Below are positions 11,493 to 57,863 of a DNA stretch of 64,000 bases, in pieces. Position 1 is the stretch's first letter, and each line of letters starts with the position of its first letter. A program made the position numbers and the translations under genes. This DNA comes from Kondoa subrosea (taxonomy: Eukaryota), in NCBI GenBank assembly GCA_039545335.1, contig BCIN01000003.1, positions 186,001-250,000 of the forward strand, in the 5' to 3' direction. The notes below the pieces were generated by a model. It saw nothing but the letters and a program-made list of their open reading frames with translations. It was not told the DNA's origin and ran no database searches.

Positions 11493-12653
11493 ATGAGCCG
11501 ATGTGAACGGTCTCCTCATATCAGGAAGTTCCTAAAAGAAACAATTGAAAGGAATAGCAACGCAAACCTTCAAGAACCTCTAAGTACTAGCGAAGACTTA
11601 GGCACGATGTGCCTTCAGTGGGCAAGTCAAGTGGTCCCACCTTTAAATGATTCAGGCGAGGAATGGGTAGACGTAGACGAGCTGTCTTTTGAGATGTCGA
11701 TCGACCCAGAGGGTCATGCACCAACGAGCAGCACTTCATCAACATCCTCTAGATCTGCTTCCACATCCGACTCTCGTCGCAGGTCCAAATTGAAGAAAAC
11801 GGCTCCCATTGGCTCCGATGGTGTAGTGGCGATAGTGGATTTCGAGGCGTATGAAAAGAGCACCCGAAACGTACGCGTTGTCTGTTTCATCATCTCGGGT
11901 CATGCTTACTTGCGTTGGCAGTATTATCACCAGAGTAGGGCAGAGAGCGATCGGCGGGCAGCAGAGAGAGAGGCGCAAATAGCGGATCTTCGTTTTCAGG
12001 TGAAGGTCGAGGAAGTTGAACGTTTGAAGGCAGAGGCGGCACGTTTGAAGGCAGAGGCGGCACAGTTGAAGGCAGAGGCGAAGCTGAAGGACGTGGAAGT
12101 TGCACGTTTGGAGACAGAAACAAAGAGGAAAGAAGACATCATCTTAGACTGGCAAATATCCGATAAAGTTGTGCAAGGTACGATCCAGTCAAAGCCTCCT
12201 CCGGTTGCTTCTTGTCTCATAGCTTGCTACAGCGATAACCGCATGGATGAAAGCTCAACCTGAATGGAACAATGAAATGGATGACGTGTCTCGTAGGCTC
12301 GCATTAGGTTTACAGAGGCCAGTGTGCTGATCTGAGCTACAGTGCGCCAAGTCTTTCGAGAAGACCGCACAACAGCTTTGCTGCGGGATATGCTGCGTAT
12401 TCTTGATAATCTGCCAAGGGCTGTCTTAGACCTCACGAAAGCCGCGTGTCTCGTTCTGAACAAGCACAACGCTCAAGCACGACATGATCTCTGTCATCCC
12501 AAGACTGATAAGCAAGCGTTGCATGTCTTTGCAGCACAAAAGTTGGACGTCAACGACACCGCCCTCAATGAAGCAGTCAATTTTGTTGCGACACAGAAGA
12601 TTTATACTACCCTTTCCTACGATGATCCGGTTGAGGCGTTCCCAAACTCCTAG
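11493..12653 (+). CDS. Hypothetical orphan protein with coiled-coil heptad repeats (spliced; 3' end uncertain)
   Basis: ORFs 11493-12263 and 12342-12653 joined by plausible GT-AG introns; ERLKAEAARLKAEAAQLKAEAKLK. Confidence 0.5.
12021..12083 (+). repeat. 21-bp coding tandem repeat x3
   Basis: cgtttgaaggcagaggcggca / cgtttgaaggcagaggcggca / cagttgaaggcagaggcgaag. Confidence 0.9.
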
Positions 12654-21800: not shown

Positions 21801-24400
21801 ACGAATTGAGCAAGATCATCGTTCAAGCAGCAAGCTGTCAACACCTCTTGATATCGTTCACTATCATATAGCTGACCAAACAAAACGTTGTCTTTCACTG
21901 TGCTAGAGAAGATGAAAGCGGACTGGGCACAGTAGGCGACTCTAGGTTGAGCTTGATCTTCCAGTTCGATTGTTATTGGAGCGGGTGCCTGTAGCTTCCC
22001 AGAGACTATTATAACATCTTTGAGTTCTCTTCGTCCTTGCGTAAGACCGAAACTCACGGAATTTGGTCTCGCCAAGTAAGCTATTGATGAAACAAGTCTT
22101 TCCAGAACCAACAGGACCGATTATAACCTAATGAAGAAGTATCGATGAGAATCGGCAGCTTATAAATGCTGTGACTTGCCGTTAAGCCTTTGGGAAATGA
22201 GATATTGAGATCTTTGAGTTGAAATGTGGCAGCTGAATCCCAAGATGTAGTTACGTTTGTAAGCTGCAGACCATATGGATCGGTTGGTGAATACTCTGAC
22301 TGTTCGTACTTCTTTGTGTCAGGTTCTCATAGAAAGCTGTCAATGCGCCTGAACCCAGCAAGAGCAAAAAGGTAGACCTGTCAATTTGTGTCAGAGAGCC
22401 ACCGCTGTACAACGGAAAGCACTCACATTGAAATTGATCGTAAGCCAATTGAATGGATCAGTCAAGATCTTGCAGTATACCAGGACGGAGAAGATGACAT
22501 CGGCTCTCCCTGAATGGCCCAGCAAGATGTAAGTTGCGATGGTAGCTGCTGATGTCAAGCCGACGCATGCCCAACCCAGACAGGCTATGAATGCGAAAAC
22601 GACTTGCCGCTTTCGAGTTACTGCAAGTTCCGCTGTTCGCAAATCATTGAGCTTCTTCTCAAACATTGACTCGTATGCCGAGAATTTGATGAAGCGAATA
22701 TGTTTGATGACTTCCTGTGTTCACTAGTCAGCATTCAATCTGATAATTCGTAAAAGAGTGTTTTACATTCGTCAGAGTCATTCTGGCATCGATGATCTTT
22801 CTCACTTGATGATATTGCTTGAATATAACTGATGATAGAAAGAAATTCGTCGCTGTAACAAGCACCATCATAGCTACACCACCCCACAGCGCGTGGCCAA
22901 CTAGACGATAGAGAGCGACCATTGTCAGTACGATGGTTATCGGACTGCACATACAATCAGATTAGTACCTTCGCGAAATAGAGCAATCTTATTTACCTCT
23001 CGACCACAACAGCTGTAAAGTTGATGACCTGCGTAGCAATATATTGTGTATCGATAGTGAAAAGGGACTGAATTCTTCCTTGATCAGCTGAACCTTCTTT
23101 ATTCGTTTCTTCATCTGCTTTGTCTACTTGATTCGAATGACGCAAGATCTTGCTAAAGATTTCGAAAGCCAGAATCGCTTTCATTCGCATTGCGATCTTG
23201 AAAACTTTCTTCTTTCGAAACGTCTGTAACAATGTCGCTATTGCTCGAGCTGCACCAAAAGCTAAAACAGCAAGAAGACCATTTCTAAACGATGCACCGC
23301 CAGCTTGATCCTTTTCCGCCATATAACGTAAAATCATTTGTAACGTTACACCTTGCGATATACTTGACAAAGAAGCAAGGATACTGAAGATTGACTGAAA
23401 CAGCAGGTCTACTTCGAAATGTAGAGCAAATTTCCATAATGTTGAAGCTTCTTTAATCCCAACTTGATCTCTGTAGGCTTTTGATGCATGACCACGTTTG
23501 ATTTCGATAGGTATATCAGCTATATCATCTTTATCCAAAGTTATGCGCATGTACTTGAACATCCAACCATCCAAAGACAGGTTCAACCAGGAAACCAAGA
23601 TAGAAGCATATCGACCTCTCATTGGTTTCAGACGGTTTTCTTCGTTGGCTACTACTGTTTCTGAACTTGCTATAGATGCGTTTTCAGCTTCGAATCGTTC
23701 GGCTGTTGATGGACCGCGCTTGACGAGATTAAGAGTAGCTTCTGACGGTAAAGCAGGGATGAGGGATTGCAAGAAGAAGACGAGGGCAGAGATAAGAGCT
23801 TCTACTTGCACTGAACGAGAAAATGATGTTGTAGACTGATAGATATCGAAGCATAGCCAAGCGAGAGCAATAACTTGAAGCAGAACACAGTGATATTGCA
23901 AGATGAAATGAAATGTCGGCTTGCGATACATTGCCGAGAAGACTTTGAGAGTCAATAGACTAGATATATAGAGCTATACCAACCTTCATTACTCATAGCT
24001 TGAGAAGCTATGCTCGAAAAAAACGAACCTGAAACACTATTTTCACCCAGATGTACCCAGTCAATGGTCTGCCATTCCATCCAACCCAACCAATAAGAAT
24101 ATTCGAGAGTAAAAGAGAGATCAAATCAAAGACCAAAGCTATTCTTCTTAGCATGACCAATCTCTCAGCATCACCAGCTACTTCTGCTTCCCTTTCCAAT
24201 TGCTGCCTATGTTCTAGAACTTTTCTTTCCGCTCTGGCTAAAGGAGAAGTGTCTTCTTCTGCTCCAATAGGTAGATACATAGCTTGAACACGTCTGCTGA
24301 TTTTCACATAAACAACTTGAGCGAGGAATATGATGAATGATAGCCCAGCGAGAGAGATGGGTATCATTCTTTCGAGCAGGTCTGTATCCATATTGACCAT
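18832..24400 (-). CDS. ABCC/MRP-family full-size ABC transporter (spliced)
   Basis: TMD-NBD-TMD-NBD; Walker A GPVGSGKT (~22100) and VGRT/GAGKST (~19600); signature LSGGQKARLALARA split over a 10-nt micro-exon; ILLLDDILAAVD; LILDESTASLD. Confidence 0.92.
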
Positions 24401-24716: not shown

Positions 24717-25710
24717 CTAAACCTGCTCAATTGACCCGGATTGATCTAATCACAGACAGCATCAGTATATGTGAATCGACGAGGATCTTGAAAGGAGGGA
24801 GACATACATTCTGATTCTACACCTGGCTCGAGCAATGCGGCATGACCAAGTACGAAAACTGAAGAAGCGCCGACGATGAAGAAAAGGGTTGATAATCTGT
24901 GAGACGGTATGAAGCATTGAGCCCAAATAAAACTGGCGCAAGATCCAATCTCTACTCACGGTGCAGCGAACCAAAGTAAAGGAACTCCGATAACGAATAA
25001 ACCGGTATAGAGTGATTTTTGAGTGACGCTATATCTCATCATACATCAGCTCACAGCAACATAGATAGCATCAGATAAGCAAAAACATACACATGCTCTC
25101 CTACTTGGGTTGGTTCTGGTGCAAAGCGGTTGATAGCGGCGAAACCGCCGACGAGGAAGAAGATGGCGATAAGGAGGAGAGGGTTGGTGAGAAGAGCATA
25201 GACGCTGACTGCCGCGATGACCACGCTGAAATCATGCTGATTGTGAGTGTACGAAAAAAGTGGATGTCTGATAGAGATTCACCTATAGTTTCCGCTAAAG
25301 TGCCGTGTCTGTGCATTTGCTTCTGAGTCCTTATCACATTGTGATGAGGCTCATTGACACGCACGTTATGGCTGATCCTAGCAGTAGCTTCGTTCAAGTC
25401 TGCAGGTCTTGATATCCGTTGATGGTCGAAACTAGCCAACGAATGAGCTCTATCCCACATCACATCAGCGAGAGCTTACAATTCTGGTATCGGCTGTTTA
25501 ACCAGTATCAGGCTTGGTCATCCCATCCCAACAATGTTTCAAAGGGAAAAACATACTCTTAGATTCGACAGTCTTTGCTCCTGGAAGTCCTTAGACAGTT
25601 TAGTCAAATGCTGCTTTCCGTAAAACGCGTTGTCACGAGGGTGAGCTCACTCTGAAGGTTTGTAGAGAGCCTGGGATGTTTGACATTAAAGCTTGAGCAG
25701 CGGCTGCCAT
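24717..25710 (-). CDS. YIP3: PRA1/Yip3 prenylated Rab acceptor family protein
   Basis: Spliced translation: ...[116 protein letters not shown]. Confidence 0.92.
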
Positions 25711-26329
25711 GATTACTTTTGGAAATGGTAATGAAAGAGTGGGAATGTGTGAGGTGAATGTGAGTCTGCTGAGACGTCTAGAGGAGAGGTAGCAATGGAT
25801 GAAAGAAGAAAGGGAGAAGACTGCGCGTGAAGATCACGTTTTGCCTTTCGCTCGCGGCAAAAACCTTCAAAGATAATTTCGGGTTTCTCCCCTTGTCACA
25901 GGACATGCGTCTTGCTCGAGCTCTTTCAACAACCGCAAAAATGGCAGCTTCCAATGTATGTCAATCCAAAGTCACCTGAGACAGAGCTGACACTGTTCAA
26001 ATAGTTCGATCCCAAGAACATGGTATCTGATTCCTTGCTATGAGGTCATGGACACAGCTGATCTAGCTGTCAGGTGTACCGCAACCTAGGTGAGTATCTA
26101 ATGCATCCATCTATATAGTCGCTCATTTCGCAAGCAGGCCGCACTGGTCTCAAGGTTTGTTCCATAAATAAAGTCGTTGGTGAGCATGTGTAACAAATGC
26201 TTACAGGTCTCTGTCTTCTCTTACGGAGGATGGCTCACCGTCGGCGGGACTCAGAAGGGAGATATCGTCAAGGTGAGAAGAGCATAGACGCTGACTGCCG
26301 CGACGACCACGCTAAAGGCATCGTCAAGG
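25186..26329 (+). repeat. 42-bp dispersed copy (25186-25227 vs 26272-26313, 41/42 identical) plus 10-bp direct repeat ATCGTCAAGG (26264-26273, 26320-26329)
   Basis: Read directly: ggtgagaagagcatagacgctgactgccgcga(t/c)gaccacgct at both sites. Confidence 0.95.
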
Positions 26330-28009
26330 ATCTGATGAAAACAGCTTATGACGCTGGTGTCAACTTCTTGTATGTTACAAGGCTCAATAATGACCGACTT
26401 GTTTGCTCAAAGTTGATCTTTCTTTACTTCTCAAAGCGACAACGCGGAAATCTATGCGGTAGGAATCAATTACATTCTCACTCCAATCCAAAAGCTGATC
26501 GGTTTCCTCAGAACGGTAACTCCGAGAATGAGATGGGTAGAGTCATCGAAGAACTAGGCTGGGACCGTGATCAGATTGTCGTCACTACCAAAGGTGATGC
26601 TTCCTTGCTTAATAATATACCGACGTTCGCTGATGACCTTGTGTAGTATTCTTTGGAACTGGTAAGAAGGACCCAAACCAGAAGTACGTCAATCTCTTTC
26701 TCTCGTCAGTTGATTACCGATCGTGATATACAGAGGTCTTTCGCGCAAGCACATCATTGAAGGTGTTAGGGCTTCCCTAAAGCGACTTCGCGTAAGTATC
26801 TACAAAGGCTTACAAGGACATGACTGACTGGGTCTGCAGATGGACTATGTTGATGTCGTCTTCTGCCATCGTCATGATGCTTCAACCCCAATGGTCCGTC
26901 CTAGTAGATTGGCCAGTTAATTGCTCACTCATTATGTTTTTAGGAAGAAATCGTTCGCGGAATGAACCAACTTATCGAGACTAACAAGGTCAGTATGCTT
27001 GCGGATGCAGTTTCGTATGAAACTAAACTCGAAGTTGATCGACAGTGCTACTACTGGGTTTGTTGAAATTGAAAGCTGAACAAAATTCCAGCTGATCAAA
27101 AGCATGCAGGGAACAAGTGAATGGTCCGCTCAACAAATCCAAGAAGCTTGGGCTGTTGCCGAAAAACTCAACTTGATCGGCCCTGTGTATGGCTTCTTCA
27201 CTACATCAGATCTCTAGCTGACATGCGATGCATAGTGCTGATCAGTGTCACTACAATATGCTTCACAGAGAGCGACCAGAAGTTGAATATGCTCCTTTGT
27301 TCGAGAAATACGGACTGGGCATGACTGTAAGCTTAGATTTCTAGCTCATTGTATTTTCAACTCATTGTGTATAGATCTGGAGTCCTCTGGCTAGTGGTAT
27401 GCTTACAGGAAAGTATAATGATGGCGTACCAAAAGTTGGTTCTCTTTCTAACACTATTACCGCACGTGCTGATCTATCGTAGGACTCTCGTTATGCTACC
27501 AACCCTGAGTATGTGTTACTTCTCTAATACAGATACCCGCTCACACGATTACAGATTCTTCAAGGATTCTGTCAAGGAACTCGAAACACCTGAGGGCAAA
27601 GTGAGAATATTCTGCTCAGTGTCATCTGTATTAACAAGTCTTTAGGCCAAGATCGAGAAGGTCAAGAAACTCACCAAGATCGCTGAGAAGATCGGAGCCA
27701 ATACTTCTCAACTTGCCTTAGCTTGGTGCGCATACAACAAGAACGTCTCTACTGTCATTCTTGGTTCGTGTTCTCCCTTACATCTCTGTCTAATCCTGAT
27801 CATGCTGTGACAGGCGCTACCAAGGTTGAACAACTCAGCGATAACCTCAAAGCACTTGAATTCGTTGACAAGATTACCCCTGAATTGTATGAAGAGATCG
27901 AAGCCGTTTTGGAGAACAAGCCAAGCTTGCCTCCTACTTATGGTCGTGTACGTCTCTCTTTTCCAGTTACTTAGTTGTTAGCTGAAAGCTATGCCTTTTT
28001 TGACAGTAA
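25905..28009 (+). CDS. Aldo-keto reductase of the voltage-gated K+ channel beta-subunit-like family (very many short exons)
   Basis: [109 protein letters not shown]. In-frame ATGs at 25905 and 25941. Confidence 0.93.
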
Positions 28010-28430
28010 AAAGTCAGCATGTATATCATTAGCTCGGAGAGTTGATGCGATGCAATACAGCAATTGTGTTATGTTCAATTATGTTCCTCCATCGTCCTTC
28101 CATCTTTCATCTGTTTGTCTACCGATAGGCGCAAACCCAACCAATGCTGTCTTTATCTTTCTTTCTAAATTCCTGCAGCCGTTGCTATGTCTCGCACTAT
28201 GAAACGCCCAACGCAAGCATCTGCTACTCTGCATACCATATGGTAGATAGTATTAGTATCCAGATGATGTGTCTGAAACTTGAAACGCTCACGACAGAGT
28301 AATTCTTCGAATTTCATCATCTGATGCTTGTGACTTCTACTGGGTTGGCTTTTCGCAACGTACCTCTTCTCTTTTCTCTCATCTCTCATCGTCCTGCGCT
28401 GGTCGCTCCTACCTTCCGTTCCTTGCTGAA

Positions 28431-36900: not shown

Positions 36901-38051
36901 AGAGATCGATCCAGCCAAACTCTCTTCATACAGCAAATTGCCAACAAATGTAGAACAATTGACCTTTTGGGCAAAGCAAATTTGGGATATTATATATGTC
37001 ACTCGTCAATCGGCGCCCAAGTAAGCTTGTCTGCTGAATTTTCCGAATCCTTGCTGATACCTCAAACAGTGAACTTCGAGTGATGTTTCAACATATTCAA
37101 GATACCGTCGACAGTCGCTATCCGCATGCAGCATCGACAATGAGATATACCAGCATTAGTGCATTCCTCTTCCTTCGCTTCATCGTTCCTGCACTTCTCA
37201 ATCCTCAATTTTTTGGTCTTACGCCCGCTCAACCTGAACCTAAGTGTCAACGGACGCTTACTTTGATAGCGAAGACACTGCAAGGCATGGCCAACATGAG
37301 CAAATTTGGCGCAAAGGAGCCATACATGGCAGTCATGAACCCTTTTATCGAAGAGAACTCGGAAGCTTTCACCGATTACCTTCATCATGTGTCGACGCCT
37401 TTCAAAGAGACTAGCCCTTCTTGGCAATCTAGTCATCATCGGCTCTATTCTCATCCTATGAAGAAAAGAGACGCACTGTCGACTCCGCTGGAAAGGGACA
37501 GCGTTCCTGCTTTGCCAAATGCCTTGGATTTGTCAAAAGACCTAGCACATTTCGCATCCCTAGTCGCAAGAGCTCGGAATCATAGTCAGATATCGGACAA
37601 CAGATCAATGAAAAGTTCGACCGATTCCAAGATTTCTGTTGTCAATCCACACGTCACCAAGATTGAGGAACTGTGCGTTCATCTGCACGAAAGGGCGCAA
37701 GCTATTGCCAGTAGCTTTGAGGCCACTCCTCACAGTACTCCGATTGCTGTCAATCACCTGACTCGTGAGGTATCGCCAGAAACTCCGATTGCTTCGTACA
37801 GTTCTTCACCTCAAGATTCTTTCTACTTCCCTACCACGACATCCCTTTCGGCCTCTAAATTACGTAACCGGGCACAAACTGTATCAGCAACGCCAACGCG
37901 ACTCGTTCCACAATCTTTCCGATCGAATTCTCCTTCATCATTCGTCAAACTCTCTGCTGAAATGGCTCGAAGCGTGTCTTCCAGTAGCTCAAGTACGAAT
38001 GAAGCCGAACCAGAAGAGTCAAGGTTTGGCAGACTGTTTCGACGCAAATGA
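33926..38051 (+). CDS. C2-domain Ras GTPase-activating protein (Bud2/Cla2-like)
   Basis: Low-complexity N-terminus, PH-like segment, C2 (ILEGRNL..FCELVLDG..PFWRESFAF), RasGAP signatures NILFRGNSILTK and SAFLFLRFIVPALLNP..RTLTLIAKTLQGMAN..KEPYM. Confidence 0.9.
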
Positions 38052-43912: not shown

Positions 43913-44396
43913 TCTTGCATTGCATTGATACGTTCTACCATTCGATGACTTATGCTCGCGAGACCTAGTCCGAGCGATTTGATGGCTTCACTCGTTTCAC
44001 ATAGATAATTGGGTTTGCCAATATCAGAAGTCATGTTTCTCCTTCCCTAAGTCGCAGGAGAGAAAAGAGAAGAAAAGTTCGACGAGCTCAAAGTGAGACT
44101 TCGGAAACAGCTTGATAGAAGAAGAAAGGAAAGTAAGAGATGTGTACCGCACGCCACGGAAACAGGCTGTAGTAGTTCTTCTTCTTCTTCTGCTTGCAGA
44201 TCGGGCAACGCTGATGCCGGACAACCCTGGTCAGCGAAAAGGGGTAAGAAGCGATTTGCCAGAGCGAAGGGCACTCCACTGTGACCTCGTGCTCACAGGC
44301 AAAAGGTCACAGCGATTCGGATACAACAGTCAACTCATTCATATCAGATTATGATATGAAACCGAAGCAAAAAACAATGCAATGTGTGGTTGCATC
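43913..44396 (-). repeat. Inverted repeat copy A (~485 bp)
   Basis: Reverse complement aligns along its length with 57374-57863, with scattered substitutions and indels; both encode MTS(D/G)xGKPxYLCETSEAIKS..LASISHRMVERINAMQ. Confidence 0.92.
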
Positions 44397-44743: not shown

Positions 44744-45400
44744 TGAACTCGCGCACGGAGACCGTATACAGTAGAATGCTAGGTGATAGCAGCCATACCC
44801 CTTAACCACTCGGGCATCAAGTCTTCTGAAACCACACTTTACAANTTCTTCCCTAAGGAATCGGTGGCAAATTGTGGCGAACCAGTTACCTGGTTGCTTG
44901 TTCTTTCTTCGAAGTCATCTAGACACATCCGGACGTTTGTGCTTGTGTTTGTCAAGCGTTTTCGTTTTTTTTTCGCGCGAATCGCCTTTGTCTGAGGCAA
45001 AATGGGTTTCATCTCGGTGAGGAGAAAGAGACTTAACGAGAGGATTGCAGTCGGCAGCCAAAAGAGGCGACTATCACCAATTATAGTCGAAATTTCCCTC
45101 TTCTTGTTCCTGACCATGACTTTCCCGATCAATGACTCGCAAACCTATGTGAAGACTGGTTTGTGCTCCTCACTTCTTGTGCACGTCGATACTTACGTTA
45201 CTTACTCCAGTACACGCTTGGAATCAACGCTACCAAGCTACTGTCATTGTACCTTCTACTGCACTAGCCGACAAGCCTCGAATTGCCGCTTCAGTAGCTT
45301 CTTCTGATATGCTCGATGAAGGAAACAACAACAGCGGCGATGCGATCTTAGTCAATTGTCTTGGACAAGCTTTCGAAGACGCAGATCAGGTCGGCATTCA
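44744..45400 (+). repeat. Direct repeat copy 1 (partner 47336-47992)
   Basis: 44744-45314 appears identical to 47336-47906 apart from an N at 44845 (matching ORF translations, constant 2592-nt offset); the last ~85 bp are diverged. Confidence 0.93.
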
Positions 45401-47335: not shown

Positions 47336-47992
47336 TGAACTCGCGCACGGAGACCGTATACAGTAGAATGCTAGGTGATAGCAGCCATACCCCTTAACCA
47401 CTCGGGCATCAAGTCTTCTGAAACCACACTTTACAATTTCTTCCCTAAGGAATCGGTGGCAAATTGTGGCGAACCAGTTACCTGGTTGCTTGTTCTTTCT
47501 TCGAAGTCATCTAGACACATCCGGACGTTTGTGCTTGTGTTTGTCAAGCGTTTTCGTTTTTTTTTCGCGCGAATCGCCTTTGTCTGAGGCAAAATGGGTT
47601 TCATCTCGGTGAGGAGAAAGAGACTTAACGAGAGGATTGCAGTCGGCAGCCAAAAGAGGCGACTATCACCAATTATAGTCGAAATTTCCCTCTTCTTGTT
47701 CCTGACCATGACTTTCCCGATCAATGACTCGCAAACCTATGTGAAGACTGGTTTGTGCTCCTCACTTCTTGTGCACGTCGATACTTACGTTACTTACTCC
47801 AGTACACGCTTGGAATCAACGCTACCAAGCTACTGTCATTGTACCTTCTACTGCACTAGCCGACAAGCCTCGAATTGCCGCTTCAGTAGCTTCTTCTGAT
47901 ATGCTCAATGAGGGGAACAACAACAGCGATGCGATCTTAGTGAATTGTTGTCTTGAAAAAGCTTTCGAAGATGCAGGTCAGGTGGGCATTCA
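47336..47992 (+). repeat. Direct repeat copy 2, containing a second 5' MSH4 fragment
   Basis: Matches 44744-45400 and begins where the main MSH4 copy is cut off. Confidence 0.93.
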
Positions 47993-57373: not shown

Positions 57374-57863
57374 GATGCAACCACACATTGCATTGTTTTT
57401 TTTTGGCTTCGGTTTCATATCATAATCTGATACGAATGAGTTGACTATTGTATTGGAAATCGCTATGACCTTTTGCCTGTGAGGGCGAAGTCACAGTGGA
57501 GTGTCCTTCGCTCTGGTAAATTGCTTCTTACCCCTTTTCGCTTTTCATGAGGGTTGTCCAGTAACAGCGTTCCGATCTGCAAGAAGAAGAAGAAGAACTA
57601 CTACAGCCTGTTTCCGTAGCGTGCGGTACACATCTCTTACTTTCCTTTCTTCCATCATCGAGCTGTTTCTGAGGTCTCACTTTGAGCTTGTCGAACTTTT
57701 CTTCTCTTTTCTCTCCTGTGACTTAGGGAAGAAGAACCATCATGACTTCTGGTACTGGCAAACCCAGTTATCTATGCGAAACGAGTGAAGCTATCAAATC
57801 GCCCGGGCCAGGTCTAGCGAGCATAAGTCATCGAATGGTAGAACGCATCAATGCAATGCAAGA
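57374..57863 (+). repeat. Inverted repeat copy B (~490 bp)
   Basis: Reverse complement of 43913-44396. Confidence 0.92.

Follow-up and report, generated by a model that had tools for sequence, protein, structure and literature searches.

A candidate intron of recent origin in an aldo-keto reductase gene, whose body matches the antisense strand of an exon of the neighbouring PRA1 gene

Introduction

[quoted passage not shown] A short segment inside an aldo-keto reductase (AKR) gene raises this question at a single locus: is the segment a spliceosomal intron, and was it gained recently by copying part of an exon of the divergent neighbouring gene, which belongs to the PRA1 family? An earlier analysis made from the nucleotide letters (the sequence-only reading) had proposed a young gain by templated insertion in which no transposon was involved. 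This proposal was followed up here by a computational analysis of the window, i.e. the whole stretch of DNA of 64 kb that contains the locus. The explanation that we favour, with a probability of roughly 0.7, is a recently gained spliceosomal intron that originated by microhomology-primed templated repair from the antisense of PRA1. We infer both the mechanism of repair and the intron-free state of the site before the event. The organism is, to judge from the PRA1 matches, a Tremellales-like basidiomycete yeast. The positions of the features are compiled in Table 1.

Table 1. Features of the AKR/PRA1 locus and their positions in the window
Feature	Position	Strand	Remarks
PRA1-family gene, divergent from AKR	24720..25625	-	aligned part: 8 exons, 7 introns; spliced alignment to P0124
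Donor	25186..25235	-	first 40 nt of PRA1 exon 5 (25225 down to 25186) plus last 10 nt of intron 4 (25226-25235)
Kv-beta-like aldo-keto reductase gene	25941..27947	+	20 exons, 19 introns of 45-67 nt, 345 aa
Left duplication copy	26264..26273	+	last 9 nt of exon 5 plus first G of the intron
Copied tract, high-identity core	26272..26313	+	41/42 to donor; source of GTGAGA and CTGAC
Candidate new intron 5	26273..26328	+	56 nt, phase 0, GTGAGA...AAG; picked by spliced alignment to P0001
Tail between core and right repeat	26314..26319	+	diverged donor continuation, second template, or untemplated filler
Right duplication copy	26320..26329	+	source of 3' AG plus first base of exon 6

Results

The AKR gene and its candidate intron 5

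The gene model of AKR was deduced from a spliced protein-to-DNA alignment of P0001 (345 aa) to positions 25850-28100, which is complete and gap-free. P0001 is the best match of a 40-aa exon translation, for which 430 homologues were found. Many of them are named voltage-gated potassium channel beta subunit, and PF00248 is present in 120 of 120 among the matches listed. The similarity to PF00248 extends over the full length and assigns the gene to the Kv-beta-like AKRs. Model and P0001 are collinear and identical in 309 of 345 residues (90%). A comparison with the cDNA contig L001, which matches P0001 and shares 80% identity with the AKR gene at the DNA level, yielded values of 0.086 for dN, 1.30 for dS and 0.066 for dN/dS. 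The AKR gene is otherwise intact and constrained.

The sequence-only reading had claimed that the reading frame is restored by removing positions 26273-26328. The alignment with P0001 picked the same interval, and the residues GDIVK|DLMK that adjoin the junction are identical to those of P0001. The segment has several properties of a U2-type intron: its ends are GT...AG, the frame is kept upon removal, and its length of 56 nt lies within the range of 45-67 nt. If the insert is retained, a frameshift results that leads to a stop four codons into the insert (ORF 26168-26287).

With 19 introns of 45-67 nt in a coding sequence of 1,035 nt, the shortest exons of AKR comprise 12 nt. PRA1 contains at least 7 introns in approximately 495 nt. 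This density is well above the one usually quoted for Cryptococcus-type genomes. The Cryptococcus-like genomic fragment P0148 contains none of the AKR introns 5-10.

The splice signals of the candidate were ranked among the 26 introns of AKR and PRA1. The 5' site AAG|GTGAGA, the core of which is the same as in intron 18, occupies rank 11 of 26. The 3' region occupies rank 23 of 26; the acceptor AAG is found in one of the other 18 AKR introns. It had further been claimed that the copied piece supplies GTGAG and a branch-like site CTGAC. Both motifs do lie within the copied core; as a branch site, however, CTGAC is off the usual distance. It is located 34 nt from the 3' end, whereas a CTNAY motif is found at 10-16 nt from the end in 13 of the 18 other introns. 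The motif CTAAA, at 13 nt from the 3' end, has the usual distance and, judged by this position, is likelier to be the branch site than CTGAC. An inner AG (26316-26317), which is the first AG downstream of CTGAC, is situated between this motif and the proper acceptor. Its use would lead to a 45-nt intron and a frameshift, and it is a possible source of inefficient or erroneous splicing.

The templated insertion might be spliced poorly or not at all and be merely intron-like, in which case the sequenced strain would carry a recent frameshifting null allele of a dispensable AKR gene. The weak 3' region, the distant CTGAC and the competing out-of-frame AG are compatible with a null allele, and given the youth of the copy, other defects would not be expected yet even in a dead gene. 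This explanation has to be weighed against the GT-AG interval, the exact restoration of the frame, a 5' site of mid-range quality, a typical length, and a CTAAA motif at the usual branch distance. Random filler would rarely yield an exact frame-restoring GT-AG interval, and the survival of an insert that had passed the filter of splicing is the simpler assumption, although this is a judgement and not a computed probability. For this reason, and because the gene is otherwise intact, we infer that the segment is spliced, and we consider the null allele unlikely.

The body of the insert matches a segment of PRA1

The model of the neighbouring gene was derived from a spliced alignment to P0124 that reaches the C-terminus; the aligned part is without the first exon and the start codon. 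All 21 matches of a 43-aa exon translation (21/21) carry PF03208 (PRA1), the best named ones being from Kwoniella sp. and Tremellales sp. Similarity to PF03208 was found along the gene, which places the donor gene in the PRA1 family.

According to the sequence-only reading, positions 26272-26313 match positions 25186-25227 in 41 of 42 bases. This value was reproduced by our own alignment, in which both segments are on the same strand, and the match was likewise recovered by a repeat search of the window. The latter extended it to position 26321 with 46 of 50 bases identical and listed a direct-repeat family 25186-25235 / 26272-26321 of 50 nt and 92% identity. Beyond the 42-nt core, three more mismatches fall within the following 8 bases. 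No pair of inverted repeats inside 26272-26321 was listed by the repeat search; the insert is hence without terminal inverted repeats.

Every 12-, 16- and 20-mer from the core of the insert occurs at two sites only when both strands of the window are checked. A self-blastn of the whole window retained 20 non-self pairs, among which the pair of tract and donor scored 73 bits (E = 3.9e-13). Higher scores were reached only by two long repeats elsewhere, and the other 17 pairs had E-values of at least 0.19. The tract and its donor are the sole short local copy of such kind in the window. The GC content of the insert is 0.57, compared to a mean of 0.41 in the other 18 AKR introns; it is the highest of the 26 AKR and PRA1 introns, as expected for a sequence that was recently derived from an exon.

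The donor had been described as coding exon of PRA1 on the opposite strand. This is correct for positions 25186-25225; positions 25226-25235, however, form the 3' end of PRA1 intron 4, and the 42-nt core takes in the antisense of the AG of this intron. The exonic part of the donor encodes (S) plus 13 residues of a membrane segment, which is conserved in 6 of 6 PRA1 orthologues compared. The only difference within the core is a T at 25218 versus a C at 26304; a conserved Ile codon is kept in PRA1 and altered in the copy. Since the donor segment is conserved coding sequence and the difference alters only the copy, the direction of copying was from PRA1 to AKR. The reverse, a PRA1 exon made from an AKR intron, was rejected on account of the conservation of the segment in all six orthologues. 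Moreover, the donor is intact, which means that the event was a copy and not a cut. Donor and insert are 1,086 bp apart, the donor being the upstream one, and they agree in strand and orientation.

The insert is flanked by a 10-bp duplication of the target

A perfect 10-bp direct repeat around the insert had been claimed, and the sequence ATCGTCAAGG is indeed found exactly at positions 26264-26273 and 26320-26329. The 2-nt GG microhomology proposed for the left junction was confirmed as well: GG is common to target and donor there. The right copy of the repeat is intronic and yet equals the last 9 nt of the upstream exon, as predicted by an insertion into an uninterrupted exon.

As recommended in a passage of a review (PMC3443670), boundary repeats should be set against the background at conserved introns. 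The boundary repeat comprises 10 nt at intron 5 versus 0-4 nt at the other 18 AKR introns (n = 19). The background of the window amounts to 19 exact repeats of at least 10 nt at a spacing of 38-150; a bare 10-nt repeat at intron-like spacing is therefore not rare. What exceeds chance is its location, as the repeat coincides precisely with the two ends of the copied tract and with those of the GT-AG interval. A window-wide scan of GT-AG intervals for boundary repeats gave a few cases of 8-10 nt (for example 22323-22394 and 430-483), which are at chance level and none of which has a donor. An intron originating by tandem duplication of an AGGT-containing exon was also considered and rejected: only 10 nt are duplicated locally, and the body stems from 1.1 kb away.

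K-mer depth fits two copies in the genome

As a check on the insert, the sequence-only reading had named raw reads. Two DNA runs (X1 and X2) of one sample, which is probably the assembly's own source, were used to build k-mer contigs (k = 31) over positions 24800-27200, and the resulting graph agrees with the insert in both runs. A shared 32-nt piece has about double depth, namely 300 compared to 145-151 in the flanks for X1, and 87.5 compared to 51-54 for X2. One k-mer contig of 1,114 nt spans the first copy, continues into the second and thus contains the left junction; the right junction is crossed by a further contig that begins within the second copy. Both junctions have single-copy depth. 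In the graph of this region, no other letters, gaps or alternative joints were found, and no contig joins 26272 to 26329. These data are consistent with exactly two copies in the genome, and it follows from this number that the tract does not belong to a repeat family.

An insert that is a chimeric join and absent from the genome is thus extremely improbable. In favour of such an artefact one can state that the reads are probably the same as those behind the assembly. It is opposed by the finding that k-mer contigs assembled separately from two runs yield an identical graph, with the depths and joints as listed above. Moreover, the copy differs from the donor at 26304, which shows that they are distinct loci. 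An origin from an introner or a transposon was rejected on several grounds: there are two copies by depth and no other copy in the window, terminal inverted repeats are missing, and the window contains no similar introns.

The insertion is young, and its site is probably not an old intron position

The core differs from the donor at 1 of 42 positions, and in the right repeat copy 0 of 9 intronic bases are changed. In comparison, dS to the nearest sampled relative is approximately 1.3 and near saturation. The insertion must therefore be young and must have occurred long after the split from this relative, whose gene could not share it unless conversion had kept the copy identical, which is unlikely for a tract so short. 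Ongoing gene conversion of an old copy was rejected as an explanation for the low divergence: it is unlikely for a 42-nt tract and leaves the perfect intronic copy of the repeat unexplained.

A metagenome scan with P0001 detected two close relatives, L001 and L002, which are both cDNA and have about 80% DNA identity. Being spliced cDNAs, they cannot tell the intron state at site 5; L002 reads through this site, which is uninformative in a cDNA contig. L002 (83-372) keeps a 55-56-nt intron at the position of AKR intron 7 and probably also intron 2. The position of intron 7, and probably that of intron 2, are thus common to the nearest sampled relative. The Lys codon in front of the junction is AAA in L001 (715-741) and L002 (239-265), and AAG in both repeat copies of the window. 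AAG|G is a better proto-splice context than AAA; its G may or may not predate the insertion.

In the same scan, the motif GGWLT.GG was found in 69 of 80 loci, which are mostly cDNA or from intron-poor fungi. Of these 69 loci, 67 read through K|D, and the other two (L011 and L051) break upstream of the K|D site. A search for short ORF fragments from genomic DNA of close relatives gave 52 candidates from more distant basidiomycetes and none from this or a sister species. Six unspliced or genomic fragments of other basidiomycetes (P0142, P0145, P0147, P0148, P0149 and P0166) are uninterrupted through K44|D45; the source of P0148 is a 42-kb contig. Four of the six contain intron read-through at or near AKR intron positions 6, 8 or 9. 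The six fragments also lack AKR introns 6 and/or 7, which implies that the absence is not specific to site 5. They demonstrate no more than that site 5 is not an old, widely conserved intron position.

These comparisons are relevant for a replacement instead of a gain, i.e. an old intron whose interior was overwritten by a templated repair patch. A replacement is conceivable in a gene as extremely intron-dense as AKR with its 19 introns, all the more so as the nearest sampled relatives are spliced cDNAs whose intron state at site 5 is not readable. Nevertheless, we regard it as very improbable. The intron can be divided without remainder into the copied tract, the tail of 6 nt and a duplicate of the 9 nt that end the upstream exon, so that nothing within it could stem from an older intron; its own last 9 nt equal those of the upstream exon exactly. 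In addition, no intron exists at site 5 in the six unspliced basidiomycete fragments, and the read-through of 67 of 69 metagenome loci points in the same direction, although most of these are cDNA or stem from intron-poor fungi.

A plausible course of events

For the recent gain by templated repair, the following course can be proposed. A break or a stalled replication end would have occurred inside a continuous AKR exon, within the codons I-V-K|D. The 3' end would have been primed on the donor by means of the GG microhomology, the template being located 1,086 bp upstream on the same strand. Approximately 42-50 nt, around 46 nt by one estimate, would then have been copied from the antisense of the start of the PRA1 exon, with errors clustering at the end. 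On its return to the original site, synthesis would have resumed 10 nt behind the point of departure, which would create the 10-bp duplication; a 10-nt staggered break that was filled in around a templated patch would give an equivalent product. By chance, the copied piece would begin with TGAGA after the G of the target and thus generate AAG|GTGAGA, and the duplicated exon end would give the acceptor AAG|G. It follows that removal of the insert together with one copy of the repeat restores the reading frame exactly. A single process of this kind would account for all features of the locus.

The structural case for this course is based on the legible donor, the duplicated exon end, the microhomology, the number of two copies, the lack of terminal inverted repeats and the near-zero divergence. 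On this structural side, the sequence-only reading is supported in its proposal of a transposon-free templated insertion that happened recently; a weak point is the quality of the signals in the 3' half of the intron.

The end of the copied tract is less clear than its beginning. Should the tail represent donor sequence that has diverged, AT is shared at the right junction. The last 6-8 nt match the donor poorly, which makes the right junction and the AT microhomology uncertain. An 8-mer in the next PRA1 exon (25293-25300) matches the transition from the core to the tail of the insert and could point to a second template switch, but it is at chance level; three other 8-mer matches exist in the same 4.5 kb.

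The tail is also of interest with respect to the nature of the template. The filler might have been derived from PRA1 RNA, i.e. a cDNA fragment or an RNA-templated patch that was captured at the break. For example, the high-identity core ends at most 2 nt from the 5' edge of the PRA1 exon, and in a comparison by hand the 8 tail bases past the last exon-derived base agree with genomic DNA and with spliced PRA1 cDNA equally well (5 of 8 each). Furthermore, PRA1 and AKR are adjacent in divergent orientation and are probably co-expressed. However, exons and introns have a length of approximately 55 nt, so that about 1 of 10 endpoints would by chance fall within 2 nt of a boundary. If the next two bases are added, the genomic continuation fits better (7 of 10) than the spliced one (5 of 10), and neither poly(A) nor another mark of a retro-copy is present. 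Finally, a distance of 1.1 kb on the same strand is predicted by local templated synthesis and would be a coincidence for a free cDNA. An RNA-derived filler is therefore quite unlikely, and genomic DNA is the preferred template.

A perfect 11-nt inverted repeat (25320-25330 / 26247-26257) was noticed in the same region. One arm is located 85 nt from the end of the donor, and the other precedes the insertion site by 7 nt. By chance, the 3-kb region should contain about one pair of this kind, but far fewer would be expected at these two spots. The repeat could not be fitted to the model of copying in direct orientation.

Other repeats in the window

A direct repeat of 660 nt (44744-45400 / 47336-47992) has an identity of 97.6% and a distance of 2.6 kb between its copies. 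The first copy (44744-45400) contains the only N of the window (44845), and the interval between the copies includes an ORF with a match to MutS domain IV. The repeat could reflect either a true segmental duplication within a gene of the MutS family or redundancy around a scaffold gap. An inverted repeat of about 490 nt (43913-44396 / 57374-57863) has 89% identity over a distance of 13 kb. Two exact direct repeats, one of 15 nt at 12024-12038 (+42) and one of 12 nt at 37737-37748 (+45), have spacings that are multiples of three; they are probably short tandem repeats within coding sequence.

Discussion

If the gain is confirmed, the target, its duplication, the microhomology and an intact donor at a distance of 1.1 kb are all preserved at one locus. 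This would argue for templated synthesis over the capture of loose DNA, and it would mean that a functional 5' splice site can arise from ordinary coding sequence read in antisense. Exon-like composition in combination with a local donor and a boundary repeat offers a search recipe for intron-dense genomes.

A more far-reaching assumption is that local templated repair primed by microhomology is at present actively generating introns in the lineage and has contributed to its extreme intron density, and that the AKR intron is the first one caught with donor, junctions and duplication all legible. We consider this speculative and improbable. A side effect would be an AKR pre-mRNA containing approximately 42 nt that are complementary to PRA1 mRNA; by way of an RNA duplex or RNAi, this complementarity could link the expression of the two divergent genes.

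Word searches in open-access full texts detected no paper in which a particular gained intron is traced to local templated insertion, and no reported intron whose body copies an exon of a neighbouring gene. The locus can, however, be compared with several known systems.

Transposon-derived introners, for which Huff et al. in 2016 and Gozashti et al. in 2022 are the reported sources, are said to acquire a splice site from their target-site duplication. In the AKR gene, the duplication likewise gives one splice site and the inserted DNA the other. In contrast to introners, only two copies exist here, one of which is a conserved exon, and neither terminal inverted repeats nor similar introns in the window were found.

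Microhomology-mediated template switching as in FoSTeS/MMBIR is comparable to the present insertion. Insertions by synthesis-dependent microhomology-mediated end joining, as far as described in passages of PMC2943611, share with it a short nearby copy, a microhomology of 2 nt, an intact donor and mismatches that cluster at the end. In these passages, however, they are described as mutational scars and not as a source of introns (PMC2943611).

For gained introns of Cryptococcus and Fusarium, parts of the corresponding paper (PMC3514964) state neither short repeats by the splice sites nor sequence similarity, and intronization is favoured there. The AKR intron resembles these gains, to the extent that they are described there, in that related fungi and lineage-specific intron positions are concerned; it differs in that both a repeat and a donor are present. 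The proliferation of Hypoxylon stwintrons is likewise depicted, in passages on this system, as being without flanking duplications.

In Drosophila, mitochondrial fillers captured by end joining have been proposed in passages of PMC3296678; their similarity is weak (E ~0.03), and flanking repeats are not enriched over background. Parts of a review also deal with introns that arise when end joining captures filler DNA (PMC3443670). Common to the Drosophila cases, as presented in these passages, and to the proposed history of the AKR intron is a filler that was inserted during break repair and became an intron. Unlike the fillers described there, the one found here is nuclear, local and near-identical to its donor, and the flanking repeat is far above the background of the gene itself.

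The closest resemblance is to Daphnia pulex, whose neointrons, in work by Li et al. dating from 2009, reportedly formed at staggered double-strand breaks. The flanking repeat of the Daphnia type is present in the AKR gene (10 nt versus 0-4 nt in 18 other introns), and so is the young age, with one change among the 42 core positions and none among the 9 of the repeat versus a dS of 1.30. Passages of a paper by Li et al. from 2014 (PMC4202315) report 33 flanking repeats of 4-12 bp for neointrons at staggered double-strand breaks; the 10-bp repeat of the exon end, the GT-AG ends and the clean restoration of the frame agree with these cases. According to the same passages, the source of the inserted DNA is obscure in nearly all cases, with potential sources for four segments and one mitochondrial one (PMC4202315). 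Here, in contrast, the insert is a legible copy of a neighbouring gene's exon at a distance of 1.1 kb, although the supplementary tables on Daphnia may hold local donors. As the passages describe them, the Daphnia cases are based on population polymorphism and cDNA, whereas the present locus is known from genomic sequence. Break repair as a route of intron gain is already known; what is new is a clean example with a rare legible donor.
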